The position numbers and the translations under genes were made by a program. 64,000 nucleotides of DNA from a virus. Position 1 is the first letter of the stretch. Every line of letters starts with the position of its first letter. The notes beneath the pieces were generated by a model that searched no databases, had not been told where the DNA came from, and was given only the letters and a program-made list of their open reading frames with translations. The stretch covers positions 15,246-79,245 of IMG/VR virus record IMGVR_UViG_3300046008_000478; one strand, written 5' to 3'. Shown piece by piece: positions 13,442 through 55,122 of the stretch.

Positions 13442-13563
13442 CCTACCTAACCCACTTCCTAGCCTACACCGTGGGCCTCCTTTGCGGGGTCTGTGGGGTC
13501 TTGATGGCAATGGCAAACACCGGGCGCTGCGATAACTGCCCACAGCACAAGGATGCCCAATGA
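13438..13563 (+). CDS. 41-aa membrane peptide
   Basis: ATGA overlaps at both ends; hydrophobic N-terminus. Confidence 0.45.
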   Translation: MTYLTHFLAYTVGLLCGVCGVLMAMANTGRCDNCPQHKDAQ

Positions 13564-15660: not shown

Positions 15661-15907
15661 TCTGAAAAGAATCCGCGGCTCACAAGGCCGCAACCCCGTG
15701 TTGGTGGGTTACCTCACCGCCTTGCCTAGTGGGCGTAATCACTAGGCAATTTTCGGAGCACGACATCAGTCGCGCTGACAGCACGCTCGGGACAAGGCAT
15801 CACGCCTCCCCATAAAGAGCGTCGTTGGTCTGCATACGGCAAACGAGTCAAGTCGCTCCTTTTGATGGCCTCCGGGCCTTGTTTTTTTAGTCTCAAAAGG
15901 AAACCAC

Positions 15908-16891: not shown

Positions 16892-16953
16892 CGTGAAAAT
16901 GATTGACCTCTGATGCGTACTCCATGGCACAATGTGCCAAAGGAGTGCGCACC

Positions 16954-17763
16954 ATGCCAATCAAGAAATGCGAGACATGCGGGTCTGAGTTTCAGGCCCG
17001 TCTTTCCAAGATCAGAACCTGCAGCACGAAGTGCAGAAACCAACTGATCTCGTCGGAGCGAGAGCAACGACACAAGGCCACCAAGCAGTGCGTGGTCTGC
17101 GAAAAGGAATTTGAAGTTGGTGCCAGTGACTCGAAGAGGCTGACATGCTCAGATGAATGCGGATACAAACTGCGCGGTTCAAAGACCAGTAGAAGCGTCC
17201 GACTTCAGTGTGCTACGTGCAACAAGAGCTTCTTGACAAAACTCTCCCAGCTATCCCAACCAGGTGGCGGAAAGTATTGTTCTAAGGAATGCATGTACCA
17301 GCGCAACTCTAGCGAGACAAATCGAGAGTGCGTGTGCTGCGGGAAGATGTTTACATCACCGCCAAGCCAAATGCATGTTGTGACGTGCTCCACAGAGTGT
17401 GGGTATGAGTGGTTTTCTGGACCGAGACGTGTTAACTACATAGGCGCCACCAAGCGAATCATTCGTAAGGATGGGACCAATGGGGTGACATTTACCAGAT
17501 GGTACTCAGCCAAGAAGAATACGGAACGCCGCGTTAAGACACAAATGGCCACGCCGCCATGGGCAAATCTTGACGCGATTCGGACTGTGTATGACTTGGC
17601 CGCAAAGATGGAGTCCCTAACAGGTCAGCGCTACCACGTTGATCACATCGTTCCGCTTAACAGTAGGACGGTTTCGGGGCTGCATGTGCACCATAACCTT
17701 CAAGTTCTTCCAGCAGTAGACAACCTGCGAAAAGGCAACCGACACTGGCCTGATATGCCATAG
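16954..17763 (+). CDS. HNH endonuclease with tandem Zn-finger repeats
   Basis: Four CxxC...CSxxC repeats; TPPWA...HVDHIVPL...LHVHHNLQVL; RBS AAGGAG. Confidence 0.9.
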   Translation: MPIKKCETCGSEFQARLSKIRTCSTKCRNQLISSEREQRHKATKQCVVCEKEFEVGASDSKRLTCSDECGYKLRGSKTSRSVRLQCATCNKSFLTKLSQLSQPGGGKYCSKECMYQRNSSETNRECVCCGKMFTSPPSQMHVVTCSTECGYEWFSGPRRVNYIGATKRIIRKDGTNGVTFTRWYSAKKNTERRVKTQMATPPWANLDAIRTVYDLAAKMESLTGQRYHVDHIVPLNSRTVSGLHVHHNLQVLPAVDNLRKGNRHWPDMP

Positions 17764-41700: not shown

Positions 41701-42974
41701 TGGACGGCCTGTACAACCCGCACACCACCACCAAACCTATTGCCAAGTCCGGCAATGCGCTCGAAACGGCTGTGCTGGATGCTGGATACAAGGGATATGT
41801 AAACCCAGAGCAGGGATCCATTGTGGTGCTGGACCAGGATGTTCCAGTGAGGTACGCTGGCATTAGCTCGCAGCACGCCATTACTCCGCGCGTGGTGCAG
41901 CGGGTGCAGCAGCGCATCATGACTCGCCTGGAGCGCTCCGAGCTGGTGCGCAAGCCGGTCGGCAACGAGATGCTGCAAATCATCGGGGCACGCGCGGCCA
42001 TCGATGCCGCGGCCCCATCGTTCAAGCTGCAGTATGGGGATGCCCGGGTAAATCAGGATGAATCTGCTGCGGCAGATGGCGCCCTGGCCTCCGCCGGGTC
42101 GACCTTTCAGTTTGGCGAGGCGCGCTACAGTGCCCGCGACCTGGGCTTCTACTCTGAGCTGTCAGCCCAAATGGACAAGGCCACCATGAAGCAGGCCCCG
42201 GCCGGAGCATGGAAGTCGTTCATCGGCGCCCTGGCCCAGAAGGGTGTAAAGAAGGATGAGGTCGAGTGGACCGGCATCAATGACTTCCTGGATCTCCAGG
42301 AGGGCAAAGTGTCCAAGGAGCAGATCCAGGAATACCTGCGCGGCAATGGCGTACAGGTGGAGGAGGTTGTGCTCGGAGATGAGCCGGCAATCAAGACAGT
42401 TGAGGCTGCCAAGAAGTATCTGCTTGAAAGATTCAAGGAAGATCCGGAAGAGCGCTATGGGTACAGTGATGATGCGGACTACATCTCAATCGCCAATGAG
42501 TGGCAGCTTGGAGACACTGGCCCCAACAGCGTATCAAAGTACCACCAGTACACCCTGCCTGGTGGCGAGAACTACCGCGAGGTGTTGCTGACGCTGCCTC
42601 GTGAAGATGATAAGACCAAGTCCGCGAAGGCTGCATTTGAAGAAGCCAAAAAGAAATTTGATACAGATGGGTCGCAGCCCAACTACTTCAATCTGAAGAT
42701 GGCAGAGATGGATCTATCAAGCGCCCAGCGTAACGTTGGGGGAGCGTACAAATCAAGCCATTGGGACCAGAAGAACGTCCTTGCCCACATCCGCCTGAAT
42801 GACCGCACCGATTCGACAGGAGCTCGCGTACTTTTTGTAGAAGAAGCGCAGAGCGATTTTCAGCAGGACTACCGCAAGTCAAAAGAAGCAGTTTCCAAGG
42901 CTGTTGAAAGTGACTTCAATGGGATAATTGAGCGCATGAAAAAGGCTGGTGTTTTGGAGGTGAATTGTGATTAA
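32739..42974 (+). CDS. Giant polyvalent ejection protein, part 1 (glucosaminidase, membrane region, InPase, zincin, ART-like and other domains)
   Basis: LETGWG...NNLGNIK...GYAEDP; EAGNY.K...DGDKVDVF...FDEHK; AHEFKH; FKEWFGDW...VVYHGT; TIDVWAAR. Confidence 0.85.
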   Translation: MSILDNTAIEQQLLAMGEKKSAGDAPAAPRSDSAASGPQAFVQRYADLAATTGAKLGVAPEVLLGQWGLETGWGKSIIPGTNNLGNIKGKNGPMATDNQTGSRDSYRAYKDDADFGNGFTAFIGNSERYQGALNSGADAGAYFSALKKGGYAEDPAYVQKGVSATRLASQFLGGRALPAGQVSATEAPTEAPQYHWGAQDGPTRTVATKPASFAEKAADTAISLGSGLLGGAKSLTDVFGADNSASQFLGEQSKNVDGYTSDERKAERAASQEKIKQAELYGSAWDEIKANISAFADAPIDIVVGAVGSSAPTLLSMFIPGLGQTAAARLVMGGIMGAAQGTGAGKGSIYEAVENKLLESGIDQDTAKKTAAAAQAYDGQNGGMIAANGIMGTIAGLTGVEGSLAKILGKKVAEGAAEKAAPGLIKTFAKGIAQESPIEGAQGGLERVSGNVALQNQGYDTPTFQGAAGQAAMESLASAPMGGGFALLSRNGQPAGPITPPNPLEEAAKAPGAVLSRAAIAPDDIAQRAHEIEGELKDSGGMQALRSIGAQHVAPFLEALSIAKDKRLPAAARQEALDTINLGMQWMADGKTADQPGNGSPFSTSLVTQSAPTQPGTDLATTAGGALTNPGMPQAFDPNTIDGEVTRVDNMLDGPKALPAPPGPALTNQTTQTPAPAGVSTSAPQEITNVTQAPQSKQAAQEGQEAPAAATPAVDTARTQVSAPKVSIPTGKGTAQSRKRRAQLDAMVVSGFDTVERRDDGFYLINHKSNEEMRLDGMGDAQTARVAIKFKMDADSHVAPSSPLNDKKAPSEAQIEAGNYHKPVTSINGFKVRIENPNGSTRSGTSPDGKKWSSTMAAHYGELEGTLGADGDKVDVFIGSRPDSDKIYVIDQKNKDGSFDEHKVMMGYQSLEAAKAGYLANYEKGWTGMGAVTEMGVAEFKAWVKSQEALKPVAYTDPKTTGVENDERGSDAAGAGLDTQSEGITGVSSSTGEGVRNPASTKGAGSTGSSGATQLDGNEATVARNAELLARVRSAIEGLRARYQAQLSVASTDAERKKLLHEISRLPDVNDPSGELLQGYSNVASAWERAFGQSVGAYVDGRSSADDGFQMGSDALVNLLNQQMPLQWTMAHEFKHLSEFVPSLKKLYDRIFSLIPQGARSEYLSYLHRTGQASTKSLDAATAADIAKLRQEMVADFLGQRFTDKAWLEQLAKQKPNLFGEFVRDWLSILNNAIHELISALSKGNNPKDIDRLMLGHLKQLQEMKLLAVDVATEWAERNPRMSKSTGASEILHSSRIDSINELGNLNLDAMSIDEDLDMVEFLKAQAEFDAQRPAAKVDPKRGGPVQPRADIADAEIQAHGLAAEDAYGDATWVHTHKSAVMLNTTARNLYKQGDESRIDLLQEQDGKWGTEGGIRGTWVGNDGMSTGGTTSLKMAQKFVSRFIASKDLFARKFDIAQTYSSASRANLLNAWNALNKMDGVRKYAKADKTAMSMKDIATQLGVTKFYDVSTFTERQSPTESFLMVEFTNKETSETQEANLTIEKDGDQRFATAHTGALNRNGLGGAFYQMAVEYAARNRLVIRPDDSLSGVNTYRRTEQMLASAMRSGKSNIMVPHSVQRVYGFQNDAKTQDEHDDNVVRLLLAGLRNARELAPEMGLLNYHPETDTFTLKNGKDATGIVDRMLANEDARAFGLGRSTLARAVLTEMALLGQLDVKSIQSIGTPLLYSAREDAELEYKLVEDQYKGTPQWMKAPDGSQTQLTQRQWVQVRTPQFKEWFGDWEKAHATGGVWATKEDVSKVVGSDGEPLVVYHGTDKGGFMAFNQPGGTKRGDLGVFTTSNEGMARSYVRKGRPQDMTPPVGLGDLEEIGYAFEQGFRIDGDFYDSEEEARDAAQEGDVIAPAVRAMDIDGYFIDGPRETGHFFATMDDAVEEALGLYDGATGISTIYAAFANIRHPNETNFEGALWGGERPEQYVVSIDGDLQSRADGKQYFTREEAEAFAKEHPNPLYQDDDGSDYIEPAQDHYQTTDDAVREGLKHGHDGTIIREVIDDGGGIGYDDMPSDVFVANKPEQLKSADWNTGEFGSSDDLRYSERLIEASSAQHQMEIEREEREIAATTRLSAAEQSSIAIEAELIGIPKSKLELEVRRIKAQFPASAGWAPMEFDKINKAEYAKRGVLIMRTVEFKKQPYDFHLGRDGKDDTSTHNKRVTSVAKGISDEIIGLSNKAKQGDKNAQITMDQIGWYSKVAAMLHHQFGGFADFLAQLMGPTSANTPVEGNVKYAMSALKSAMSGKWDGLIADTIRWNEGVMQAAAGLDAVIDANRAKPKAERLTGKALAQTVEFKDAMAVVAAAAPYQGEVPQQDSGAKFGMATQGVVEILAGIWSDFQRGDAPKTKNYYQNLIGRQFTGATIDVWAARTLRRMAGLLRLPTSAEKGVAGNIGAKLTPGAEFGFGQEAFVKAAENLRNSGIEEFANTTPADVQAMIWFSEKESWARSNWTTKIGEGGSAEAEFNLQGNADRDGLEDARRMARKGLPHTGSTKPNKTEEGAQQASINAGVGQFPSARETPQYKERLAKIIAKAVRARNEARVQFESMRGAADRWIAGVTPATDFTPTDATMAEVGAELESKVAMGEDAHKVLAFKALPTMGRYGYDERSIDFEGVTRQGYNGVDMLKPLLELAKDKAQDGLLFGRVLRADEDIDYLRHRPGLELYLAKGTTMEKAQPLLDKLTELGFQQFTFVVDPVRTPGALSGKMGDVVGLRYIFTPEFALREPNPEYGGDQTWAPGALTDDQIRGRMLAKADELHGLSDDLQMIAGVSSVERRHYEANVYFWGDYDNAIARLGARAGNSDSEKSWSGQPLRSGLEGADRRREMDSGSEDAKSFAARRDVLRGDSEPAFSRRDEGYSGRDGADGSVSIKGAVHYGRQAGLSVLSGSSSGTGIKGAEQDRLSAPGVDPRIKRRVYFYIPTSVGIPQSEIGLGAHVYMADLDGLYNPHTTTKPIAKSGNALETAVLDAGYKGYVNPEQGSIVVLDQDVPVRYAGISSQHAITPRVVQRVQQRIMTRLERSELVRKPVGNEMLQIIGARAAIDAAAPSFKLQYGDARVNQDESAAADGALASAGSTFQFGEARYSARDLGFYSELSAQMDKATMKQAPAGAWKSFIGALAQKGVKKDEVEWTGINDFLDLQEGKVSKEQIQEYLRGNGVQVEEVVLGDEPAIKTVEAAKKYLLERFKEDPEERYGYSDDADYISIANEWQLGDTGPNSVSKYHQYTLPGGENYREVLLTLPREDDKTKSAKAAFEEAKKKFDTDGSQPNYFNLKMAEMDLSSAQRNVGGAYKSSHWDQKNVLAHIRLNDRTDSTGARVLFVEEAQSDFQQDYRKSKEAVSKAVESDFNGIIERMKKAGVLEVNCD

Positions 42975-43647
42975 AAAGTTCTTTGTCTACCAGCACAAAA
43001 CAGCAGACACCTTGACGGTTTTCTATATTGGGAAAGGGTCGCTAAAAAAAGGTGGCTTTGATAGGGCGTATGTTTCAAAGAAGCGCAGTAAATTCTGGCA
43101 GGCCATTGTTGCAAAGCATGGTCTTGTTGTTGAAATTCTTGATTCATTCGACACAGAGCAAGAGGCTTTTGAATCAGAGCGCCAGTTAATCTCCTTGCAC
43201 AAGCGCCGATCTGACGGAGGGACATTGTGCAATATGACTCTCGGCGGAGATGGTCACTTGGGATTAACAGCATCGCCAGAAGCAAGGGCCAAACTTAGCG
43301 CCGCATTGTCTGGCGAGAAGCATCCGAACTGGGGCAAGAAACTATCAGCAGAAACGTGCCGCAGAAAGTCCGAGTCGCTAAAGGCCAGTCCCCACAATCT
43401 CAAGGGAAAGAAGTTGCCTGATTGGTGGAAGTCTCGTATTGCTGCAACGAAGGTTGGCGAACTCAATCCTATGTATGGCAAGACCGGGTCTGCGAATCCA
43501 AACAGTCGCAAGGTGCGCGATGCTGGAACTGGCCGCATTTATGACAGTGTTCTTATTGCAGCTGATGCCAATGGCTACAAAATGAAAACACTTTACAACT
43601 GGCTATCAGGTCACCGACCAAACCCAACCTCACTGGAGTTCGCATAA
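42967..43647 (+). CDS. GIY-YIG-type homing endonuclease with NUMOD3 repeats
   Basis: FVYQH...FYIGKG..R; NMTLGGDG; HPNWGKK and NPMYGK; AT-richer than flanks. Confidence 0.85.
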   Translation: MIKKFFVYQHKTADTLTVFYIGKGSLKKGGFDRAYVSKKRSKFWQAIVAKHGLVVEILDSFDTEQEAFESERQLISLHKRRSDGGTLCNMTLGGDGHLGLTASPEARAKLSAALSGEKHPNWGKKLSAETCRRKSESLKASPHNLKGKKLPDWWKSRIAATKVGELNPMYGKTGSANPNSRKVRDAGTGRIYDSVLIAADANGYKMKTLYNWLSGHRPNPTSLEFA

Positions 43648-44702
43648 TGGCCTGCCAATACACCTACAAAGGAAGCACCTATGAAGCGTGGGAGTTTGAG
43701 GACGTCTTAAAGGCAATGTCACCATCTGAGGCCTCCGCCTTCATTCCTGGAGTGAAGTCAGTTCCAGATGCTCCATTCACCCAGAACACGCAAGGCTGGC
43801 TGAACCTGGCACTCAAGCGCGTCATGAAGCTGGCGGTGGATGGAGGCTACGACAAGGTGGCATTCGTGAATGGCGAGCAGTCTGCGGATCGGTACAGCCT
43901 ATCTAAGTCCGTCGCAAAAGTTGATTGGTACAAAGCGCAAAGCGAGTACGGCACAAGGATTGTCGAGATCGAAACCACGGCGGATGATACGGCCATGCTG
44001 TATGTTGATGATGCCGGATTGATTGTTAGGGTTGGCTCGCGTACCGCCGCCTTGAAGCAGCTTCAGGGTCGCCAGCTAGACGAGGCGCTCGGAAAGGACT
44101 TTGCTAACAAGGTCTTGTCAGAAGACGATGGCAGCTCCAGCGGGGATGGACTGAACATCGGCGGCGAAGGCATGAAGACCTTCTACAACTCCATCGTGCC
44201 CAATGCCGCCAAGGCCTTACTGAAGAAGCTGGGTGGCGGGCAGATGGAGTTCGTCAAAGGCATGACGGCCGACAAGCAAGGCTGGCACATCACCGACCCA
44301 TCCAACACCACCACCGGTAAGTGGATGCTCAAGAGCAGCGACTACAACTCAAAAGGTTTGCACTTTGACACTGAAGCCGCGGCCAAGGAGGCGCTTGCAG
44401 AAAAGCAAGTGAAGCTCAGTCAGCCAGGATTCACCATCACCGACGCCATGCGCGAGAAGGTGGGCAACGGAATGCCACTGTTCAGCATGCGTGACACCCA
44501 GGCGCTGGATGCGGAGCAAGCCCACCAGGACGACGCTCCGGCTACTCCAAAGGCCAGGAAGTACGCCGGCGCCAAGGTGGACATCCAGGTGAAAATTGAG
44601 GACACGGGCGAGGTGGCAACCCTTAGAATGGATGTACACCAAACGATTGACGACTTTGATAGCCGTCAAGCAAACATGCAGACGCTGCTGGATTGCCTGT
44701 AA
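43647..44702 (+). CDS. Giant ejection protein, part 2
   Basis: VPDAPF...W..LALKR...GYD.VA...GEQ.ADRY continues the domain ending part 1. Confidence 0.85.
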   Translation: MACQYTYKGSTYEAWEFEDVLKAMSPSEASAFIPGVKSVPDAPFTQNTQGWLNLALKRVMKLAVDGGYDKVAFVNGEQSADRYSLSKSVAKVDWYKAQSEYGTRIVEIETTADDTAMLYVDDAGLIVRVGSRTAALKQLQGRQLDEALGKDFANKVLSEDDGSSSGDGLNIGGEGMKTFYNSIVPNAAKALLKKLGGGQMEFVKGMTADKQGWHITDPSNTTTGKWMLKSSDYNSKGLHFDTEAAAKEALAEKQVKLSQPGFTITDAMREKVGNGMPLFSMRDTQALDAEQAHQDDAPATPKARKYAGAKVDIQVKIEDTGEVATLRMDVHQTIDDFDSRQANMQTLLDCL

Positions 44703-45151
44703 TGAAAATTGTCAAGTCGACCGAAGACCTCAAGCGCATGGCCCTCGCCCGGGGTGCTAGCGCCAGCTTCGGCGGTGCAAAGTTCAACAGCACCGAGGAC
44801 CGGGTGAGCTCCAGGCCCATCAAGCCTGAGCCCAAACCAGAGCCTGCCCCAGAGCCACCCAAGGAAAAGCCGCCAGAGCCACGCATTGAGCAACCCAAGG
44901 CAGTTGACCTGGCGCCCATCGTTCAGGCTGCTGTGGATGCTATGGCGGCCAGCGTGAGCGACATTGCCAAGGACAACGCCCGGGTGATGCAGGAAGTCAT
45001 GAAGGCGGTGGAGCGAATAACTGCAGCGCCTCCCGCAGCCACGACCATCACCTCTACCGTGCCAGAGATGACGGCCAAAGCCTGGCAGCTCAAAGTGAAT
45101 CGCGATACCCGCGGGTTCATGGACACAGTCGATATCAAACAAATCGGATAA
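44702..45151 (+). CDS. Pro-rich protein ending W.LKVNRD..G (first gene of the inserted cassette)
   Basis: TAATG coupling; PEP repeats. Confidence 0.7.
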   Translation: MKIVKSTEDLKRMALARGASASFGGAKFNSTEDRVSSRPIKPEPKPEPAPEPPKEKPPEPRIEQPKAVDLAPIVQAAVDAMAASVSDIAKDNARVMQEVMKAVERITAAPPAATTITSTVPEMTAKAWQLKVNRDTRGFMDTVDIKQIG

Positions 45152-45160
45152 GGAGCAACC

Positions 45161-45370
45161 ATGCAAACAGTTTCCGGGTCACTGACCCTACTCAACGCCC
45201 ACACGGACGCACCACAGGTTTACTGGAATGGAGCCAAGGTCGAAGGCATCACCGCCATCGCCATTGCAAACGGCGGGGGAATGCATCGTGTTGTACTGAC
45301 CCTGCCCGAAGACCCAATCCTTGCTGAGATGCAAGCGGCTGGTATCACCATCAAACGGAGTGCAGTATGA
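45161..45370 (+). CDS. Hypothetical protein
   Basis: RBS AAGGAG. Confidence 0.7.
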   Translation: MQTVSGSLTLLNAHTDAPQVYWNGAKVEGITAIAIANGGGMHRVVLTLPEDPILAEMQAAGITIKRSAV

Positions 45371-45597
45371 GCGGCGAATTCCTTTTCATCCTGCCTACGG
45401 GCTGGGAGCAGATTGTTCCTGCGGACGTTGACATGATTGAAGGCGGCTTGTCTACCTGTCGCGCTCACATCAGCGGCGGTCAGATGGGTGACTTGACCGC
45501 CTTGTTCATTGCCAGTGGACGCTTCACGGCCCCTACCTACATTGACGAGGCCAAGCTGCTGAATGACGATATTCTGGTTGTGCATACGGTGACGTAA
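45367..45597 (+). CDS. Hypothetical protein
   Basis: ATGA overlap. Confidence 0.65.
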   Translation: MSGEFLFILPTGWEQIVPADVDMIEGGLSTCRAHISGGQMGDLTALFIASGRFTAPTYIDEAKLLNDDILVVHTVT

Positions 45598-45600
45598 TCA

Positions 45601-48186
45601 GTGACTGCCTACACGATCAGCAACGGGGGGCTCAATTACTTTGATGCCCAAACTGCCCCAAGCCTTAACGCGACATTAGACACCTACACAATTTCTGCGG
45701 GTAGTACCCTTGTTTGTCGCACCGATACCTACGCCTGCGCCAATCACTCGATAGCGGGTGGTTCGCTGGACACGGTGACATTCACCGGGCAGGGTGGCGA
45801 ACTTCGCTTTGACCCCACCTATGTGCGCGAGATTGACTACACAGGCGGTAGCGGTAACTCGCCCGCCTACGGTGCGGCAGTCAGCCAAGGCGGTGTAAGC
45901 GGTGTGTTCTTGGGGTGCTGGGCCAACTGGCAGAGCGACCCCGCTGTGGCTGGTGTAGCCATTCCAGCTACCGGAAAAATGAAGATTGGCGGAGTGACTG
46001 GCGGGGCTTTTGCTGCCGGTGCGCTGACGGGCATCGCCGCAACTTGCTCCGGTGCAGACAAGCAATCGTGGATCGAAATCAAAGGCCCCGACACAGCCAC
46101 CATCACAGTGCCGCGTATCGGCAAGGTCACCAGTGTTGAGGCGTGGTACGAGCTTGGCACCACCACTGGTGTGCGCGGTCAGATCATCCCTTGCCCCACC
46201 ACCGTCACGGTTGCAGGCGTTTGGCCGGGTGTGTGGATTGAGACTGCGGCAGGCTCTGGGGTCTATGACCGCTATGCCGGTGTGGGTTCGCAGGCTGCTT
46301 TGGCGACTACCCGCACCACGGCTGAAATGAAGATCATTTGGCAGACCACCGCAGGCATTCGTATTGGCAACGATGGCACTAACGGTGTCGGCTACCTGCC
46401 TGTCACGGGCTGCAAGGTGCGCATTCCAGCCACTATCCTGACCAACTGCACCCGCGTGGTGGGTGGATCAGGGCCAAGGGTGCTACCCAATGCCACGATT
46501 GCCACACGGCAGGAGCTGGTGACTACCGGAGCGGGTTACTTTGATCTGCGCAATCTGGTGTGCCAGTGGTACATGAACTTCAGCCAACCGTTCTATGTCA
46601 AGTATTTGAACTGCGCGGTATCGGATTCGATGATCTTGTCGGAGGTGGCATCACCGCTGGATGTGGACAACTGCATCGTGGGTGTGACTCAGGCACAGAG
46701 CAACTTCGCCCTGAATGTGGCTTCATGCTTCGCTGGCGGGGCTATCAAGAACAGCCTGTTTGGTCGGTTTGCAATGGCGGCATCGGGCAACTACGTGGCT
46801 TCGTTGGCCTACATCACTGGTGTGGCTTTCAGCAGCAACACACTGTTGTCTGCTACCTTGCGCGGCAATGCCAGCACGGGTGTAATTAACTCAACCCAGT
46901 TGGTGAACTGCACGTTTACCAACGAGACTTGGATTGGTGGACGCGGTTACTTCGTTGGCCCGCAGCGTTGTACCTTCAACAACACGACATACTACGACCA
47001 CACGATAACCACCACGACAACGGCGACCAACCCAATGTACGCGCTGGACTTCGCCATCGGAGGCTCTGGTAATGTGGTGAACGGTTTTGCAATGCCGCAA
47101 CCCAACTTCGGCCCATACAGCGGCTTGGTGTCAGTCAATGCTTGCTACACCACGCTGATCAAGAACATCGGCACGGACTACGACACGCCGCTGGTGATGA
47201 ATGCTGCGGTGACAGGCGTAGGTGTAAACGGTGTTGGTAACAATGACGGCATCACGATCAAACGGATGTACCTGAGCAACACCCGGTCAGGGCCGTATGC
47301 GTTCGTCAACTCGGACACCAATGTGCTGATTGAGAACATTTCAGGCGATGCGGCTGACACTTCAGTGGTGGCTGGATTGAACGTGCTGGTGAAGAATGCA
47401 CAGCTCACCGGAGCAACAACGGGTCAAGTGTCGGTCTATGGGTCACACTGGCTGACACGCTACACCAGCGCCACGGCTGGTTTCACGGAGATTCTGTGCA
47501 ATGAGCCAACCAGCTCCAGTGCAGCGCAGTGCTTTGCATCCGGTGGATTGCCACAGTTCAACTCCAGCGGATCGGTGCTGCTGACCAAGGTGGGCGACTC
47601 GGTGACTTGGGAAATGCCGTTCTTCGCAGTGGGCTACACCGCGTTCACCAACGGCGCACCCACTATTACCGGCACGAACGTGACCTTTGGCACACGATGG
47701 GGAAATCACGACATTGAATTCCAAGTGGACACCGGCACAGGCTACGGTGGCACATGGCTGAACCTGACTGCTGCCAACCTGATTACCAAGACGTTCACCA
47801 GTACGGCAGGTTTCAAGCTCAAGGTGCGAGCCACTTGTGCGATTGCTGCGGCCACCAACGTCATTACGAATATGCGCGTAGCCATGACCACCACGGCCAG
47901 TGCCCGCAAGGGGACGCTGTACCCGCTGTCGGTCAACACCATCACGTTCACAGGCTTACCCACTGGCACGGATGCAGTGGTGCTGACTGCTGGGACTTCT
48001 ACGGTGCTGGCAAGTGTGGATGCAGGAGTAGGCACCACGTTCAGCTACCAGTACGAGGGAACACCAACCGTGGATGTTGGCTTTATTCAACCCGGCTATG
48101 TACCTCTGTACATCCGGGGACTTGCACTCACCAGTGTGGATTCGTCCATCCCTGTATCGCTTTCAATTGACAGAAATTACGTCTAG
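45601..48186 (+). CDS. Large beta-helix/fibre-like structural protein
   Basis: T/G/N-rich beta repeats; C-terminal DRNY. Confidence 0.7.
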   Translation: MTAYTISNGGLNYFDAQTAPSLNATLDTYTISAGSTLVCRTDTYACANHSIAGGSLDTVTFTGQGGELRFDPTYVREIDYTGGSGNSPAYGAAVSQGGVSGVFLGCWANWQSDPAVAGVAIPATGKMKIGGVTGGAFAAGALTGIAATCSGADKQSWIEIKGPDTATITVPRIGKVTSVEAWYELGTTTGVRGQIIPCPTTVTVAGVWPGVWIETAAGSGVYDRYAGVGSQAALATTRTTAEMKIIWQTTAGIRIGNDGTNGVGYLPVTGCKVRIPATILTNCTRVVGGSGPRVLPNATIATRQELVTTGAGYFDLRNLVCQWYMNFSQPFYVKYLNCAVSDSMILSEVASPLDVDNCIVGVTQAQSNFALNVASCFAGGAIKNSLFGRFAMAASGNYVASLAYITGVAFSSNTLLSATLRGNASTGVINSTQLVNCTFTNETWIGGRGYFVGPQRCTFNNTTYYDHTITTTTTATNPMYALDFAIGGSGNVVNGFAMPQPNFGPYSGLVSVNACYTTLIKNIGTDYDTPLVMNAAVTGVGVNGVGNNDGITIKRMYLSNTRSGPYAFVNSDTNVLIENISGDAADTSVVAGLNVLVKNAQLTGATTGQVSVYGSHWLTRYTSATAGFTEILCNEPTSSSAAQCFASGGLPQFNSSGSVLLTKVGDSVTWEMPFFAVGYTAFTNGAPTITGTNVTFGTRWGNHDIEFQVDTGTGYGGTWLNLTAANLITKTFTSTAGFKLKVRATCAIAAATNVITNMRVAMTTTASARKGTLYPLSVNTITFTGLPTGTDAVVLTAGTSTVLASVDAGVGTTFSYQYEGTPTVDVGFIQPGYVPLYIRGLALTSVDSSIPVSLSIDRNYV

Positions 48187-48194
48187 GAATCATC

Positions 48195-48950
48195 ATGGGC
48201 CACTTACTGCTTCCATCGTCTGAAACGCCTATGTGCGTATACACGGTAACCAATACTTTAAGCGGCAAGACGTATGTTGGTCAGACGACAAAGCTGGCTG
48301 GTGACCGCTGGTACAAGCACGTATGGAATAAAGAAGGGTCTGCAATAAGTGCAGCAATCAACAAATACGGGGTCGATAATTTTGAATTTGCAGTTATCGA
48401 CAACGCTGAAAATATTGACCAGTTAAATCACAAAGAGGACTTCTGGGTAAAGAGGCTGAACACGCTATCACCGTTTGGGTACAACTTGTTGCACGGCGGG
48501 AAAAACAGAATACCGTCTGAAGAAACACGGAAGAAGCAATCTGCATCAAAGCGTGGTAAGCCGTCAGTCCCTGAGCATGTTGAGAAGCGCACCATCGCAC
48601 TCCGCGCATATCACGCGGCGTTGCCAAAGACGCCAAAGCCTCCAAAGGTGTACGTTGACAGGAAGTCGCCTGAGTATCGCGCAAAGATGTCTGCCGCCAA
48701 GATGGGCACCCGCATAACTCATAGGTCAATCAATGCCACAAACCGGACAGGTAAGTCAGGCGTTTTCTTTAGAGAGAACCATGGGCCTTCTGGTGCATTC
48801 TCCGCCCACGCAATGGTGGACGGGGAACTGAAGTCTAAAACATTTGGTTGCATGAAGCGCGGAAAAGACGAGGCGTTTCGACTCGCCTGCCAGTGGCGAG
48901 TAGCAATGGAACAGATCAACGGATTAACTGTAATCGGAGAAGCTAAATGA
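48195..48950 (+). CDS. GIY-YIG homing endonuclease with NUMOD3 and AP2-like domains
   Basis: VYTVTN..SGKTYVGQT; AINKYG..NF; GYNL..GG; N.TG.SGV. Confidence 0.85.
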   Translation: MGHLLLPSSETPMCVYTVTNTLSGKTYVGQTTKLAGDRWYKHVWNKEGSAISAAINKYGVDNFEFAVIDNAENIDQLNHKEDFWVKRLNTLSPFGYNLLHGGKNRIPSEETRKKQSASKRGKPSVPEHVEKRTIALRAYHAALPKTPKPPKVYVDRKSPEYRAKMSAAKMGTRITHRSINATNRTGKSGVFFRENHGPSGAFSAHAMVDGELKSKTFGCMKRGKDEAFRLACQWRVAMEQINGLTVIGEAK

Positions 48951-50338
48951 AAATCACCTCACAAGCTGGCTTGATAGTCGGCACCAATCTGACTATTGAT
49001 GAGCCGGGGCGCATCATCACGTTGAACGCCGGAGGCTCGTTGGTAGCCAAGGATGGCGTGTCATGGCAGGCGCTGTACTCCAAGCTGGTGAGCTTGTGGG
49101 CCACCTCCACTTACCAAGACAGTCCATTCCCCGCTTATGCGATTGATGCGTTGTCGGGCCAGTTCCAAATTGGTACAGACGGAAGTTCGTACAGTGGCTG
49201 GAAGTTTTCCGATGTGGACTCGGACGCAACCCGAAATATGCTGCGTGACGGTGGCTGGTCTGAATACTCTGCTGCGGGTGTTTTGCTTCAGCAGTACGCT
49301 GGCTTCATCGGCTTGGGTGGCATCACCCCAGCAACGACTGTGCAGCCGTACTACCACTTGGGTGCAACCGACGCGCCCATCAACTTCCCATTCACTGACC
49401 AGTTCAATGTGGGTGTGCGGGTGTTTGGCGATGCGTCACATGGCAGCTTGGATAAGCGCACCTACGCCAAAGCCTTTGCCCGTGAGTACGGCAAGAAGTT
49501 CAAATCCTCCATCTTGGCTGATACGGGTGCGACAGCTACCGGCGCGAACAAGGTCAACTTCTTGGTGTCCAATGAGGATGACTTGAAGATCACCGGCTTG
49601 CTGGGTGCTGTGCAGGCGACAGCGGATACCGCCATGTCTGGCGCTCCTTACTCTGGCATCACAGTGGCCTACTACACGCTGAACCAGACGCGCAGCATTG
49701 CAGGCACGAACCGCGACTTCAAGATCATCATCAACGGCAATAGCGGGACGCTGGAGCAGATTTATGCCAAGGTGCAGTACATGCTGCGCCAAGGGACTGA
49801 CATCAATACAGGCGGTACGGCTGGCACAAAGACGGGCAAGATTCAGGATGAGCTGCTCAAGTTCGTGGGCGACACCTTGGTCACTTCGCAATCCGTATTT
49901 ATTGACAACGTACTCTCCGCGGACAGCAACCGGGTTGAATTCTACGACGACACAAACACCCTACGGGTCAACAACTACACCGCATCCGGTGAGATGACGT
50001 TCAATGGGGTGCTGGTGGGTGCTGGATCGAGCTACCGCCTGATGTTCACCTCGCCAACGGGCGCAGGCAACGACTACGGTGAGGCTGGTGCTGTCACGGT
50101 CAACAACGCCGCAGGAACACCCATTACGGGAACCATCAGCGCAGCGTCCATCGCGTTCGACTTCGATTGGAATGGCAACGTGCAGGCTGGCTACTCTGGC
50201 GCTACCACGCGACCCGTCACCTTGATAGGGATTCGACCAGGCTACGGCAAGTTTGCAGTTGGCACAGGGACTATCACGCAGTCCAAGGGCATTAGCTTGT
50301 CATTGGTGGCTGAGCAAGACCGTGTTTACGCCGCATAA
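48947..50338 (+). CDS. Structural protein (cassette)
   Basis: QALYS.L..LW N-terminal domain; C-terminal DRVY. Confidence 0.7.
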   Translation: MKITSQAGLIVGTNLTIDEPGRIITLNAGGSLVAKDGVSWQALYSKLVSLWATSTYQDSPFPAYAIDALSGQFQIGTDGSSYSGWKFSDVDSDATRNMLRDGGWSEYSAAGVLLQQYAGFIGLGGITPATTVQPYYHLGATDAPINFPFTDQFNVGVRVFGDASHGSLDKRTYAKAFAREYGKKFKSSILADTGATATGANKVNFLVSNEDDLKITGLLGAVQATADTAMSGAPYSGITVAYYTLNQTRSIAGTNRDFKIIINGNSGTLEQIYAKVQYMLRQGTDINTGGTAGTKTGKIQDELLKFVGDTLVTSQSVFIDNVLSADSNRVEFYDDTNTLRVNNYTASGEMTFNGVLVGAGSSYRLMFTSPTGAGNDYGEAGAVTVNNAAGTPITGTISAASIAFDFDWNGNVQAGYSGATTRPVTLIGIRPGYGKFAVGTGTITQSKGISLSLVAEQDRVYAA

Positions 50339-50341
50339 CCC

Positions 50342-50848
50342 ATGCCCATCGCGTTCGACCCCGCTACGCAGCGCGTCATTCTTGACAGCGCCAGCGTAAC
50401 CGCGACCCAGATTTACAGCCGGTGGGCTGATTGGATTGCCACCGGAGACAACGCCAAGTACCTGCCAGCCTTCCGCACTGCCGGGGGTGATGACTTGGGT
50501 TCTGGCTTGTCCATCCCGCCTTACTACTTTTTGGCAAACGGCTGGAAGGTTCGCCCAATGGAGTCCAGCCACAACCTCACGATCACGGGAAACCTGTTTG
50601 TGGACGGCGGCGGGGTTCCAGTGGTATCCACCCTTGGGGTGTATCAGGTCAATGTGAACTACACCGTGCCTGTGCAGGCGCAGGGCATCAGCACCAGCGG
50701 ATCGAGTGGCCCAACAGCGACCGAGATCGCAGCGGCGGTTATCGCGGGCCTCATGGCTACCACCATCCCAGTGAATATGGCCAAGGTCAACGGGCAGGCG
50801 CTGGCGGGCGCGGGAACAGAAGCCAGCCCATGGGGGCCGGGGGCTTAA
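50342..50848 (+). CDS. Structural protein, paralogous N-domain to the upstream gene
   Basis: QIYSRW.DW; C-terminal VN..KVNG....G.GTE.SPW.P. Confidence 0.7.
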   Translation: MPIAFDPATQRVILDSASVTATQIYSRWADWIATGDNAKYLPAFRTAGGDDLGSGLSIPPYYFLANGWKVRPMESSHNLTITGNLFVDGGGVPVVSTLGVYQVNVNYTVPVQAQGISTSGSSGPTATEIAAAVIAGLMATTIPVNMAKVNGQALAGAGTEASPWGPGA

Positions 50849-51088
50849 ATGGCAAGCGCATGGGGTAAGAGCTGGGGCGCGGCGTTTGGCGTTGCATTCG
50901 GCCTGGCAGTCGCAACTCCACCAACTCCGGCCCCTGCAGCCCCGGTCGCGCAGATTGGTGGCGGCGGAACCTCGCTGGCAGACTGGGAGCGCGAGCTTGA
51001 CCTGCAGCGCCATAAACAGATTCAGGCAGAAGACGAAATTATTGTCACCGCGATTGCACAGATGATCGCCAACGGAGCATTCGGATGA
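50849..51088 (+). CDS. Small protein (WG.SWG..FG N-terminus, EDEII C-terminus)
   Basis: ATGA overlap with the next gene. Confidence 0.65.
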   Translation: MASAWGKSWGAAFGVAFGLAVATPPTPAPAAPVAQIGGGGTSLADWERELDLQRHKQIQAEDEIIVTAIAQMIANGAFG

Positions 51089-54000
51089 CCACAAAATGTA
51101 TGGAAATCGTCAACAAGATGGCGGACGAGGACCAGGATTCCTTGCTGGCTAAGCTTGAGCAGTACCAAAAGATTGGCGTGCCCGCGAGCAAAGCTCAGAA
51201 GATGGCTGCCAAGGACATGCTGGAGGAGCTCAAGGGTGAGCGCGCTGATTTCATGAAGGCCGTGGAGGAGCAGCACCCGGAGCCAGATCCAGTTGCATCC
51301 AGCGGCCAGTTCGATGCCTCGAACCCAGACATCCGCCACAGTACCCGCGAGGAGATCGCCGCCGGGGCCGACGCCATCAAGGCAATGTCCGATTCGGTGC
51401 GTGACAACCTGGAGCCGGCCAAGGCCCCGGGCGGGTGGCACGCCTATGTACTGTACGAGGCGCGCAAGATCCTGCCTAAGCCATCGGACAAGCTGAAGAA
51501 GCTGACCGAGCGAAACTCATTCATTGCGCACCAGGACAATGAGTACCTGGCCAACGTCGATGGCTCCTACTACGGCGTCAACAAGTGGGAAGATCCGGAT
51601 GCAACCGGGCACGAGGAGGATGGTAAGGAGCCATTCGTGTTTGCGTTCCACTCGCTTGAGGACGGTGGGTATAACACCACAAACTCAATGGAGAGTGACG
51701 TCGGTGAGTTGATGGCCGCTATTCGCAAGAGCAAGCAGGGGCTGAAGCTTAGCGCGCGAGATGACGGACTAAACTCGAACAAGTCCAAGTCTTTTGATGT
51801 AGTTGTAGACCGTGGCGACCCCGACACCAAGGCTGATGCTAATGTCCATGGCGCTGGCGCCGCTCGCGAACATCTCAGGGAGTCCTTGCATTCTTTCGGC
51901 AACCTTCTTGTGAGCGAGTGGGAGGAGGCTTCGGTACTTGAGGGCGGTGTAGATGGACTGGTGAGTGACGCCAAGCTGCTTTCCGATATACACAATGCTC
52001 CGACCTTCATTAAGCATGGCTACAGCGGACTCAATGCTCCACTTCAGAGGATGGTGCTCCATGCGGTGGGTCGAGCTCTCCATAATGGCGAGGTTCTCGA
52101 TGCTGTTGTTCAGTCTATCCCCGTCGATGTGGTGGACATCCTCTCCAGGGAGAAGCTTACGACCAATGGATTGCTCCATGACATATCGATGCTCAAGTGG
52201 GTTCAATCCGTCGACGGCAATTTGGCGGTATCCACCCTTATTGATGTGGCCGCCAGTGCGGTATCCGGCGTTCCTGCACTCGAACGAGCAAAAAGTTCTG
52301 GCGCCAGGCTTGATGAGGGATCGGTATTTTTGAAAAATAATTCCGCAGGTGATGCAAGTGCAGGTGACTTTGGTGGACATGTTTTTGATTCCAGTGATGT
52401 TGAGTATTCCATGCGGAGCGGGACTTCTACATGGGATATGTATGAAAACACAGTTTTCGACAATGTTATCTACAAATTACAGAATCGTCAAATCGATGTG
52501 AAGCGCGTCATCGAGTCCATTGCCAAATTCACAGGCAAAGTCGCGGATGACCTGAATGTCTACCTGCAAGAGGAGTTGTTCCATGGCCGGGCCGCCAAGC
52601 GCGTAACGGACTTTGCCCGCATGGAACTGCAGCCGATGATCGAAGCCATCCGCAAGGCCGGCTACGAGCTCTCCGATGTGGAGGAATACCTGCACGCGCG
52701 CCACGCCAAAGAGGCCAATGCGGTTATCGCAACCCGCAACCCTGGAGATCCAGGCATGGCGGACGGTGGATCCGGCATGACCAACCAGGCGGCCGACGAT
52801 TACATGGCCAACCTGACTCCAGAGAATGCCCGCAAGCTGGGCGCCATTGCAGCCCAGGTTGACGCAATCACCAACACGACCCGCCAGATGTATGTGGACT
52901 ATGGCCTGGAGTCGCAAGACACGGTAGATAGCTGGAAGAGTTTGTTCCAGCACTACATCCCGCTGCAGCGCGAAGACAAGGATGGCAAGGGCGGAATGGG
53001 CATCGGCCAGGGCTTTAGCGTCAAGGGCAAAGAAACCCGCGGGCGCACCGGATCCAAGCGCAAGGTGGTGGATATCCTGGCCAACATTGCCATGCAGCGC
53101 GAGCGGCTGGTGGTGCGTGGCGAGAAGAACCGTGTCTCCAATGCATTGGTGGGCCTGGCCATTGCCAACCCCAACCCAGAGTTTTGGAGCGTTGGCTCGC
53201 CCCCGACTGAGCGGGTGTACGACCCCAAGACTGATACCGTGGTGGATCGGGTGGACCCTATGTTCAAGAGCCGCGAGAACGTCATGGTGGCCAAGGTGCT
53301 ACAGCCAGACGGGTCCGTCAAAGAGGTGGCTGTGATCTTCAACGAAGATGATGCGCGCGCGGTGCGCATGGCTGCAGCCCTGAAGAACCTGGATGCCGGC
53401 GACCTGGAGGGGCTCTGGGGTGTGAGCGCCAAAATCACGCGCTACTTCTCCGCCATCAACACCCAGTACAACCCAGTGTTCGGTGTTGTCAACTTGATCC
53501 GCGACGTGCAGGCGGCACTGATTAACCTGGACACCACCGTCTTGGCCAACAAGAAGGGGCGCATCGCCAAGGATACTGCGTCAGCACTGGCCGGCATCTA
53601 CCAGGATATGCGCGCCGAGCGTAAGGGTCAGCACCCAACTTCCAGGTGGTCCGTTCTATGGGAGGAGTTCCAGCACGAAGGTGGGCAGACCGGCTTCCGC
53701 CAGATGTTCGCAACTAGCGCCGACCGGGCGGACGAGCTCAAAGGAATTCTCAACCCTGACGCCTGGATGGATAGCAAGCTGGGCAAGATCTTCACCGCCA
53801 ACGGCGCACTGCGCGTACCGCTATCTAAAGCCAAAGAGGGCGCGGCCGTGATCTTTGATTGGCTGAGCGACTACAACGAATCGATGGAGAATGCGGTGCG
53901 CTTGGCATCTTACAAGGCAGCCACCGACCAGGGCATGAGCAAGCAAGAGGCCGCCAGCCTGGCCAAGAACCTGACCGTAAACTTCAACCGCAAAGGGCAG

Positions 54001-55122
54001 ATCGGCCAGCAGGCAGGCGCCGTTTACGCCTTCTTCAACGCAGCCATGCAGGGCACAGCCAGGATTGGCCAGACGTTGTTCACCATGGAAGGCGGAAATT
54101 ACAAGACCATGCGCCTGAGCTCCACCGGCAAGAAGGTGGTCTACGGCGGCATGCTGCTTGGCACCATGCAGGCCTTGGCGCTGGCGGCTGCGGGGTTTGG
54201 GGATGACGACCCGCCCGAGTTCCTGCGCGCGCGTAGCTTGATTATCCCAACGGGTGGCAAGACGTACATCAGCATCCCAATGCCGCTTGGCCTAAACGTC
54301 CTGCCAGGCATTGGGCGAAGCTTGACGGAGTTTGCACTGGGCGGGTTCCAGGCGCCGACCAAGCGCGCTATCGGGCTGTTCAGCCTGTTCGCTGACAACT
54401 TCAACCCGATCGGCAATGCAGGCGTCTCGATGCAGACCCTTACCCCAACCGTGTTCGATCCTCTGGTGGCCATCACTGAGAACCGGGACTTCACCGGCAA
54501 GCCGATTGCCCGGGTATCCAGCAACAAGGCGGTCCCCGGGTACACCCAGTACAAGGACAGCGCCACCGTGGTTGGAAAGCTGATTGCTGAAGCCATCAAT
54601 GGCGCCACCGGTGGAAACGCCTATGTGGCCGGAGCCCTTAGCCCCACACCTGACCAGATCGATTACCTGCTGGGCCAGGTGACTGGCGGCGTTGGGCGCG
54701 AGCTATCAAAGGTTGAGCAGACCACATTGAACCTTGCGCGCGGCGAGGACTTGCCGCTGTACAAGATCCCTCTGGTTGGTAGGTTCGTTGGCAACTCAGC
54801 CAGCCAGGCCAGCCAGGGTGGCCAGTTCTACGCCAACGCCCAAAGGCTCAACGAGCTGGAGACTGAGGTCAAAGGCATGATCAAGGACGGCAAGCGCGAG
54901 GAGGCTGGCGCCGTAATGAAAGAGCATCCAGAGGCCTACCTGATTGCCCAAGCCAATTCGGCTGAGCGCCAGGTGCAGCGCCTGAAGCGTGAGAAGCGGA
55001 TGATTGTAGAGAGTGGCGCAAGCCGTGAAGCGGTGGCCGCCAAGGAGGCTCAGATTACCCAGGTGATGACCCGGTTGAATCAATCCATGGAGCGGCTACG
55101 CGAAAAGAGCGCGGCCAATTGA
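51085..55122 (+). CDS. Giant ejection protein, part 3, with C-terminal LPD38-like domain
   Basis: HYIPL; N.IRD; TVNFNRKG...YAFFNA..QG; N.DF.GKPI; P.QIDYL. Confidence 0.85.
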   Translation: MTTKCMEIVNKMADEDQDSLLAKLEQYQKIGVPASKAQKMAAKDMLEELKGERADFMKAVEEQHPEPDPVASSGQFDASNPDIRHSTREEIAAGADAIKAMSDSVRDNLEPAKAPGGWHAYVLYEARKILPKPSDKLKKLTERNSFIAHQDNEYLANVDGSYYGVNKWEDPDATGHEEDGKEPFVFAFHSLEDGGYNTTNSMESDVGELMAAIRKSKQGLKLSARDDGLNSNKSKSFDVVVDRGDPDTKADANVHGAGAAREHLRESLHSFGNLLVSEWEEASVLEGGVDGLVSDAKLLSDIHNAPTFIKHGYSGLNAPLQRMVLHAVGRALHNGEVLDAVVQSIPVDVVDILSREKLTTNGLLHDISMLKWVQSVDGNLAVSTLIDVAASAVSGVPALERAKSSGARLDEGSVFLKNNSAGDASAGDFGGHVFDSSDVEYSMRSGTSTWDMYENTVFDNVIYKLQNRQIDVKRVIESIAKFTGKVADDLNVYLQEELFHGRAAKRVTDFARMELQPMIEAIRKAGYELSDVEEYLHARHAKEANAVIATRNPGDPGMADGGSGMTNQAADDYMANLTPENARKLGAIAAQVDAITNTTRQMYVDYGLESQDTVDSWKSLFQHYIPLQREDKDGKGGMGIGQGFSVKGKETRGRTGSKRKVVDILANIAMQRERLVVRGEKNRVSNALVGLAIANPNPEFWSVGSPPTERVYDPKTDTVVDRVDPMFKSRENVMVAKVLQPDGSVKEVAVIFNEDDARAVRMAAALKNLDAGDLEGLWGVSAKITRYFSAINTQYNPVFGVVNLIRDVQAALINLDTTVLANKKGRIAKDTASALAGIYQDMRAERKGQHPTSRWSVLWEEFQHEGGQTGFRQMFATSADRADELKGILNPDAWMDSKLGKIFTANGALRVPLSKAKEGAAVIFDWLSDYNESMENAVRLASYKAATDQGMSKQEAASLAKNLTVNFNRKGQIGQQAGAVYAFFNAAMQGTARIGQTLFTMEGGNYKTMRLSSTGKKVVYGGMLLGTMQALALAAAGFGDDDPPEFLRARSLIIPTGGKTYISIPMPLGLNVLPGIGRSLTEFALGGFQAPTKRAIGLFSLFADNFNPIGNAGVSMQTLTPTVFDPLVAITENRDFTGKPIARVSSNKAVPGYTQYKDSATVVGKLIAEAINGATGGNAYVAGALSPTPDQIDYLLGQVTGGVGRELSKVEQTTLNLARGEDLPLYKIPLVGRFVGNSASQASQGGQFYANAQRLNELETEVKGMIKDGKREEAGAVMKEHPEAYLIAQANSAERQVQRLKREKRMIVESGASREAVAAKEAQITQVMTRLNQSMERLREKSAAN
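51769..52380 (-). CDS. HNH homing endonuclease (Zn finger, HNH, HTH) nested antisense in part 3
   Basis: EHRYVMEQ.IGR.L..GE.VHHIDGDRLNN.IENL; CxxC..CS..C; tandem HTHs. Confidence 0.9.
   Translation of the reverse strand: MSTKVTCTCITCGIIFQKYRSLIKPGARTFCSFECRNAGYRTGGHINKGGYRQIAVDGLNPLEHRYVMEQSIGRKLLPGEDVHHIDGDRLNNSIENLAIMESSTHRMEHHPLKWSIESAVAMLNEGRSIVYIGKQLGVTHQSIYTALKYRSLLPLAHKKVAERMQGLPEMFASGASAMDISISLGVGVATVYNYIKRLGLVRV

Follow-up and report, generated by a model that had tools for sequence, protein, structure and literature searches.

Can a nuclease gene lie complete on one strand of a phage gene while the other strand is still read as one long protein? The question is raised by a window of 64,000 nucleotides (nt) of virus DNA (IMG/VR record IMGVR_UViG_3300046008_000478), which covers bases 15246-79245 of one 79,245-bp contig from an uncultured phage of lake-water metagenomes. 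In this window, a gene for an HNH homing endonuclease is found on the minus strand inside a plus-strand open reading frame (ORF), hereafter the host gene, that encodes the last part of a polyvalent protein (Table 1). The features described below suggest that this is a mobile homing gene, inserted antisense and in exact register into a polyvalent gene that reads through it, a reading to which a probability of about 0.8 can be given. The host gene would then most likely be translated straight across the HNH gene.

Two genes in exact register

By its sequence features, the HNH gene is real and intact. Its protein (P0002) matches the Pfam families HNH_3 (3.6e-10) and HTH_7 (1.1e-7) as well as PHROG 15471 (1.8e-18), and many phage HNH genes were matched in tblastn searches, with E values down to 6e-15. 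Residues H83, H84, N92, N96, H105 and H109 do not vary among the aligned nested relatives, the catalytic His/Asn/His residues are present, and a zinc ribbon and HTH modules provide the accessory DNA-binding parts (Table 1). The presence of the gene is also patchy, as it is absent from the IMG/VR relatives L001 to L022 and from two related proteins, P0004 and P0005, and variant alleles occur in the same lakes. The HNH gene is probably selfish.

The plus-strand ORF, judged by homology, is likewise one real gene. It matches Pfam LPD38 (1.3e-41) and PHROG 14770 (4e-188), and its start codon at 51085 overlaps the stop codon of the preceding ORF (ATGA) and has a GGAG Shine-Dalgarno sequence. Residues 6-78 of its N-terminal leader share 96% identity with the beginning of P0003, in which an ART-PolyVal domain comes next, and the leader is 43-48% identical to the N-termini of P0004 and P0005, both of which conserve Cys5, the sole Cys of the 1345-amino-acid (aa) protein. 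Module A is 72-76% identical to residues 216-354 of P0004 and 279-430 of P0005, where its copies end in L-x-x-S-E-R; its counterpart in P0006 is 40% identical. The leader (residues 3-94 here), module A and the C-terminal LPD38 module (72-75% identical) belong to a single protein in both P0004 (1675 aa) and P0005 (2048 aa), in which 412 and 710 residues of other modules, respectively, the first being ART-PolyVal, stand between module A and the C-terminal module. The latter also closes one continuous ORF of more than 2000 codons in 22/22 IMG/VR relatives. The product can be assigned to the polyvalent proteins, having an LPD-type domain and unrelated modules on recurring linkers, to which relatives add ART-PolyVal.

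Homology to the host gene ends at 51762 and restarts at about 52387-52396. From this gap, the inserted element is delimited as the HNH ORF with a few flanking codons at either end, about 204-208 codons in all, at the position held by other modules in relatives. Since the plus frame has no stop, ribosomes that start at 51085 must traverse the antisense codons of the HNH gene.

The register is exact, 51769-51085 being 684, or 228 x 3, and (52380-51085+1) mod 3 being 0. In such a register the HNH start codon ATG reads as His and its stop codon as Leu or Ser on the host strand, and the host ORF remains intact provided that the HNH gene contains no TTA, CTA or TCA, which are host stops. None of these three codons is used in the HNH gene, nor are ACA and GCA, which would read as Cys. 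As all five forbidden codons are unused, the plus frame crosses the HNH gene without a stop or a Cys.

Codon usage was taken from 25 of the phage's own genes, in which TTA, CTA and TCA (stop-makers) make up 1.6% of the codons and ACA and GCA (Cys-makers) 4.2%. Among 8408 windows of 204 codons, 5.7% lacked stop-makers and none lacked Cys-makers. Given the amino acids of the HNH protein and the synonymous usage of the phage, the probability of no stop-maker is 0.024 and that of no Cys-maker 0.004, jointly about 1e-4; if codon usage is taken instead from the three further homing genes of the phage, the joint value falls to 7e-10. The five forbidden codons were expected 8.4 times and observed 0 times, and the other codons ending in A (NNA codons) were in excess (28 observed versus 18.4 expected), so that the avoidance is specific and does not reflect a general shortage of wobble A. 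A free-standing HNH gene of the same phage (13560-14198) uses CTA twice, TCA twice, ACA seven times and GCA twice. Chance is unlikely as the cause of the codon pattern in this window. Cys is rare in all three polyvalent parts of this phage (1/3411, 2/351 and 1/1345 aa).

Much of this had been reported in a preliminary description of the window and was confirmed here, namely a complete 203-aa HNH gene on the minus strand in register with a plus ORF, a plus frame that is open and Cys-free with five codons unused, the use of TCA, CTA, ACA and GCA by the HNH gene at 13560, the motifs KLSAR and EYSMR bracketing the insert (found at 51745 and 52402), and adjacent AT-rich host codons at 52440-52500 (GC 0.30-0.33 versus about 0.6 around). 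Other statements had to be revised. The insert had been put at about 215 aa, which is slightly too long. The host gene had been called essential, for which the sole evidence is the conservation of its C-terminal module in the 22 relatives. The inserted domain had been called neutral, a term that is too weak, as Tyr, Trp and His are likewise avoided in the host frame and one Pro is retained.

Table 1. Positions of the HNH gene, its host gene and other parts of the polyvalent protein locus in the window.
Feature	Position	Strand	Basis or remark
Host gene, polyvalent-type, 1345 aa; last polyvalent part, holds the antisense HNH gene	51085-55122	+	Open across HNH; LPD38 and PHROG matches
N-terminal leader, residues 1-78	51085-51318	+	Similarity to the starts of P0003-P0005
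Module A, residues 86-226	51340-51762	+	Terminates in linker motif KLSAR (51745-51759)
Host-frame read-through segment, residues 229-432	51769-52380	+	Reverse complement of HNH codons; no stop, no Cys
Conserved C-terminal module, about 900 aa	52396-55119	+	Starts at EYSMR (52402-52416)
Recoded AT-rich host codons (35 codons)	52396-52500	+	Just 5' of the HNH start
LPD38, residues 1041-1231	54205-54777	+	Pfam
HNH homing-endonuclease gene, 203 aa, ATG start, TAG stop	51769-52380	-	Pfam, PHROG, tblastn
Zinc ribbon of HNH	C9, C12, C31, C35		Invariant in the alignment with nested relatives
HNH_3 motif, residues 64-105	about 52066-52191	-
Two HTH modules of HNH	residues 115-144 and 170-197
Promoter-like site TTGACG-17-TAACAT	52463-52491	-	82 nt upstream of the HNH ATG; consensus match only
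3411-aa ORF	32739-42974		Glucosaminidase, InPase, LPD37 and ART-PolyVal domains
GIY-YIG/NUMOD3 gene	42967-43647	sense	First of two GIY-YIG homing genes in the polyvalent locus
351-aa ORF			Continuation of the polyvalent protein after the GIY-YIG/NUMOD3 gene
Second GIY-YIG gene	48195-48950	sense	Inside about 6.4 kb of other genes after the 351-aa part

Nested relatives in giant proteins

The plus-frame translation of 51769-52380 was searched against 1.84 billion cluster representatives. It matched 208 clusters at E <= 1e-3, of which 46 reached E <= 1e-10; almost all of the 208 are proteins 1000-5000 aa long in which the match is internal. Among the best 150 of the 208 there were 125 giant hosts, and in all of them (125/125) the segment of about 200 residues contains 0 Cys. 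Because a Cys codon does not break an ORF, this result cannot be biased by ORF calling. In the aligned columns, V/M stand opposite His, I/V opposite Asp/Asn and S/P/T/A opposite Gly, which mirrors synonymous change in the HNH gene, so that the main constraint appears to be carried by the HNH frame. The hosts tested carry LPD38, ART-PolyVal or LPD23, and insertion sites vary among them: the segment lies just after the start of ART-PolyVal in 6/125 hosts (1.3 expected) and just before a linker motif in 8/125 (1.2 expected). For P0007, the nested HNH is presumed from the protein only; the contigs of P0004 and P0007 themselves were absent from IMG/VR, and a tblastn search of isolated phages with the plus-frame peptide gave no match. 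By these homologies, the locus is a member of a large lineage and not a one-off case.

Host proteins contain 0.03% Cys overall. Outside the HNH segments, 98 Cys were counted in 313,454 residues; 84 of 129 giant proteins (P0009-P0157) are Cys-free, and 15 have a lone Cys within their first 12 residues, like Cys5 here. A linker motif of the type G-N-x-G-x-F-D-x-x-N-P-D-I-R-[YH]-S-x-R is repeated between the modules of many polyvalent proteins. It is found at 51331, 51745 and 52402 of the window and in P0003-P0005, P0007, P0013, P0019, P0024 and P0031, and the HNH segment is flanked by it in this phage as well as in several further hosts.

DNA loci were collected in two ways. Eight IMG/VR loci were fetched by the plus-frame pattern, seven of which contain an intact HNH ORF (31-44% identical to P0002) on the minus strand and in register. 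The host ORFs of these seven are on the plus strand and range from 667 to more than 4096 codons; in the eighth locus, L031, the plus frame has only 223 codons. A first scan of GTDB genome contigs with the same pattern found nothing. A second IMG/VR sample of 76 distinct loci was drawn with the HNH protein itself, blind to the host frame, and is therefore free of bias from the openness of the host ORF. Six of these loci are nested, including the five most similar, with host ORFs of 1459 to at least 2155 codons and zero forbidden codons. The 70 homologs that are not nested in register (hereafter non-nested) carry 2.8 stop-makers and 2.3 Cys-makers per 100 codons, and 20% of their NNA codons are forbidden ones; Cys-makers are missing from only 2 of the 70 and stop-makers from 8. 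The absence of Cys-makers thus differs between nested and non-nested genes of this sample at p = 1.3e-7 (Fisher test). In GTDB genome contigs, nine loci are nested, among them the eight best HNH matches. Their host ORFs measure 606 to at least 2855 codons, their HNH genes again contain zero forbidden codons, and they come from metagenome-assembled genomes of seven bacterial groups. Bacterial loci with this layout include L142 (Herminiimonas, contig of 490 kb) and L143 (Sphingomonas). The two HNH-based samples together contain 15 nested genes and zero forbidden codons.

The avoidance follows the host frame. In 10 nested loci, TGY codons number 0 in the host frame versus 2-7 and 10-18 in the other two frames, and wobble A is found in 0 of the CTN, TCN, GCN and ACN codons versus 31% of GGN and 21% of CGN. 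The invariant Leu97 is encoded by CTA in 20/55 free homologs versus 0/10 nested ones. Also depleted in nested genes are CCA, GTA, ATA and GTG, which would give Trp, Tyr, Tyr and His in the host. The preliminary description had proposed a stealth homing gene under dual-coding selection, and this frame-specific avoidance, both here and across the lineage, lends it support. Two findings had been named that would speak against that proposal: a last polyvalent part starting downstream of 52400, and an equal avoidance of the codons by free-standing homologs. Neither holds, given that the N-terminal 228 aa are homologous in P0004/P0005 and that the 70 non-nested genes carry the codons at the above rates. 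The comparison with relatives, which had also been recommended, revealed other modules at the HNH position in P0004 and P0005.

Other nesting geometries were also encountered, in ORFs of 523-1969 codons. The HNH gene is in the sense +1 frame in L041, L045, L049 and L052, in the sense +2 frame in L078 and L079, and antisense but in frame 2 in L066, L083, L106 and L107, of which L066, L106 and L107 fall within one clade of five in a quick tree. Further loci with other geometries are L146, L149, L192, L205 and L209. As several geometries occur in the same HNH samples, hidden nesting seems to have several forms.

Proposed mechanism and alternative explanations

In the proposed mechanism, ribosomes from 51085 would read 204 extra codons, and the product would be a polyvalent protein with an added module-sized, Cys-free spacer between the KLSAR and EYSMR linkers, in the place occupied by ART-PolyVal and other modules in relatives. 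The HNH protein would be made from an antisense transcript starting in the AT-rich recoded codons (52396-52500). Its gene might spread during co-infection, when the nuclease would cut the polyvalent genes of relatives that lack the HNH gene and repair of the break would copy this gene into them.

The AT-rich codons have a third-position GC content of 0.46, versus 0.71-0.83 in the remaining host gene, and contain the rare TTA and CAA where L001 has CTG and CAG. They are presumed to be the promoter/5' region of the HNH gene, or else a co-converted flank. In 8/10 nested loci, the 120 nt preceding the HNH start are poorer in GC than the more distant part of the host gene, the difference being 0.05 or less in two of the eight. 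Contigs from two lake-water runs, which may be the source samples, cover 51280-53069 and 51280-52521 without differences. Variant contigs from the same lakes share the leader up to 51315, then continue with the ART-PolyVal start (...FKSWFGD) and rejoin at 52492 or 52555, which indicates that several module arrangements coexist in one habitat. The pattern agrees with an exchange of whole modules, one boundary of which would be where the AT-rich stretch ends. Blastn of the region gave only a distant Bacillus phage match, and a scan of metagenome contigs only an unrelated HNH fragment (L024).

Several points weigh against an active, mobile HNH gene in a translated host gene. Transcription and translation of both strands are predicted from the sequence, and nuclease activity and homing from family membership and patchy distribution. 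The promoter-like site matches the consensus at 9/12 positions, a match that is as frequent in shuffled sequence, and a sigma-70 promoter search upstream of 10 nested HNH genes gave matches in 4/10 and no shared promoter. The HNH Shine-Dalgarno sequence is weak (GGA). No exact HNH-less allele of the host gene was found among the lake contigs, where the variants differ over the whole of 51316-52491. Support for a single nested clade is weak (SH-aLRT 83 in a quick tree, which resolves little). Finally, the host gene may have an additional internal start at ATG 52411.

The alternative that survives best, although it is improbable, is true dual coding of two proteins, in which the host-frame segment is a folded module selected for its own function. 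Opposite the Gly of the HNH motif HHx[DN]G, 97% of 154 sequences have a Pro in the host frame, and that Gly is encoded by GGG in 10/10 nested genes versus 7/60 non-nested IMG/VR homologs. Host Gly84 (91%) and Phe80 (70%) are conserved while the opposite HNH residue varies, and AlphaFold2 predicted a helical bundle for residues 61-178, with a predicted local distance difference test (pLDDT) score of 64-87 in the best model. However, most host-frame columns vary freely (S/P/T/A, V/M), as HNH wobble predicts, and the HNH residues are better conserved. The pLDDT is <=50 in 4/5 models and averages 61.8 in the best one, the covariation in the alignment could stem from the HNH frame, and no Pfam or PHROG family was found for the host-frame segment. 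From these sequence patterns, a selected host-frame module is possible. The conserved Gly/Pro codon is at 52126-52128 of the window (host CCC, HNH GGG), and the same column is found in L026-L038 and L111; the host Pro might break an aggregation-prone V-D-V-V-D-I-L stretch.

It is very improbable that the plus frame across the HNH gene is a chance shadow. In that case, an ordinary HNH gene would lie between two host genes, with the C-terminal module translated from its own ATG at 52411, and the open frame would reflect the fact that antisense in-register frames are often open at 57% GC. Long in-register shadow ORFs (264-355 aa) are indeed common here, stop-makers are missing from 5.7% of the 204-codon windows, and homology to the PHROG family and L001 begins only at about 52396. 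However, no plus-frame stop closes an upstream gene, and P0004 and P0005 carry counterparts of the upstream 228 aa in one protein with the same C-terminal module. Met443, encoded by the first in-frame ATG past the HNH gene, is not conserved (Ile in P0005), and its Shine-Dalgarno sequence is merely GAG. Chance would also have to produce the absence of ACA and GCA (P = 0.004; 0/8408 windows) and to repeat zero stops and zero Cys in every nested relative, a combination found in almost none of the 70 others.

Hardly any weight can be given to a dead or domesticated passenger, in which the HNH gene would be silent or retained for a use by the phage, with constraint now acting on the host frame only. 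Such a gene would agree with the promoter search, in which matches did not exceed the background, with the weak ribosome-binding site and with an element barely longer than the ORF, so that all its signals must sit in host codons. Against this, no zinc-binding or catalytic residue is missing from the intact ORF, and the same is true of 19 nested relatives at 31-49% identity, which argues for purifying selection on the HNH frame. Its distribution is patchy as well, the gene being absent from 22 relatives, P0004 and P0005 and its insertion site varying from host to host.

No intron or intein is involved: Rfam gave no match at E <= 1 in 50500-53500, Pfam gave no Hint or intein domain, the segment has no Cys, and no nucleophile is present at the junctions DDG/LNS and GGH/VFD. 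A de novo antisense overprinted gene was ruled out by the many HNH homologs that are not nested in register.

Beyond the mobile in-register HNH gene favoured here, a wider proposal may be put forward tentatively, although we consider it unlikely. This HNH lineage may be specialised for a backwards, in-register life in giant polyvalent genes; its host-frame product may be a selected module, and cutting near the linker or the ART-PolyVal start may drive module shuffling.

The polyvalent locus and known systems

The polyvalent protein locus spans 32.7 kb to 55.1 kb of the window (Table 1). A single continuous ORF of L001, the closest IMG/VR relative (76% identical in the C-terminal part), aligns successively to 37368-42878, 43749-44510 and 52396-55110. 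Since this ORF is uninterrupted, 44703-52395 is extra in this phage. The extra DNA (about 7.7 kb) stands between the second and last polyvalent parts and includes ORFs of 861, 463, 168 and 79 aa without Pfam or PHROG match. The first GIY-YIG gene overlaps the stop codon of the 3411-aa ORF, and the protein split by it is uninterrupted in L001. As the GIY-YIG gene splits the protein and the antisense HNH gene does not, both modes of invasion of one gene family occur in this phage.

In-register shadow ORFs of this phage can be very long, such as a presumed one of 355 aa (15893-16960, minus strand, versus 15908-16891, plus strand), where either strand may be the coding one, and one of 264 aa (50300-51094, minus strand), the latter without Pfam match. 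Eight other antisense ORFs inside the polyvalent genes were rejected as plain shadow ORFs, none having a Pfam family.

Polyvalent proteins of phages and conjugative elements provide the first comparison. The host protein resembles them in its LPD38 domain, and its relatives in having ART-PolyVal, LPD37, LPD23 and InPase strung on linkers; it differs in that the segment antisense to the HNH gene is not a catalogued module and would be the shadow of a gene on the opposite strand. Such HNH genes are never reported by gene callers, so that homing endonucleases would be under-counted in phage metagenomes and annotations of giant proteins would contain phantom modules. The near-absence of Cys appears to be a strong rule for polyvalent proteins and hints at their mode of delivery.

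Free-standing homing endonucleases that split genes are similar in that a selfish nuclease gene of variable presence sits in a conserved phage gene. The GIY-YIG genes of this window, however, are on the sense strand, end the host ORF, force a restart and leave the protein in pieces, whereas the antisense HNH gene keeps the ORF whole.

The closest known system is the ShiLan domain, a homologous zinc-finger HNH that is concealed in mycobacteriophage DNA methylase genes, on their strand but in the third frame, and leaves them open (Arsenault, Gosselin and Gogarten, Genes 2025, PMC11855218). P0002 is 35-37% identical to the ShiLan, Bipolar and Mantra elements (tblastn E down to 6e-15), and in Bipolar the match is on the same strand as, and out of frame with, the annotated methylase coding sequence. 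Both systems show a complete zinc-finger HNH wholly inside an open host ORF, no intron or intein features and a patchy, homing-like distribution (PMC11855218). They differ in strand, frame and host, since the HNH gene described here is on the opposite strand, in exact register and in a polyvalent protein gene; of the marks of the ShiLan type, nesting in an open ORF and the lack of an intron or intein are shared, and the same-strand, out-of-frame placement is not. The ShiLan paper mentions no antisense or reverse orientation and reports no avoidance of Cys in the host frame (PMC11855218). An out-of-frame endonuclease has also been described in a cyanobacterial dnaX intein, where an antisense arrangement is not mentioned (bioRxiv 10.64898/2026.09.14.751524). 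In a full-text literature search, neither the antisense in-register arrangement nor its avoidance of Cys was found to have been described. This antisense, in-register form in polyvalent proteins is new, hidden HNH insertion elements as such having been described only recently. With zero stops and zero Cys in every nested copy, it gives a clean signal and a natural system for the study of dual coding on two strands.

Homing endonucleases carried by inteins and introns, finally, also reside in essential-type genes whose product is kept, and in the dnaX case the frames overlap as well. Their insert is removed by RNA or protein splicing, whereas neither a Hint domain nor intron RNA is found here, and the codon avoidance indicates that the insert stays in the host protein. 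The host would translate the reverse complement of its passenger, and selection on the synonymous codons of that passenger would keep this translation harmless. Besides introns and inteins, this would be a third route by which a selfish nuclease gene can sit harmlessly in a coding gene.

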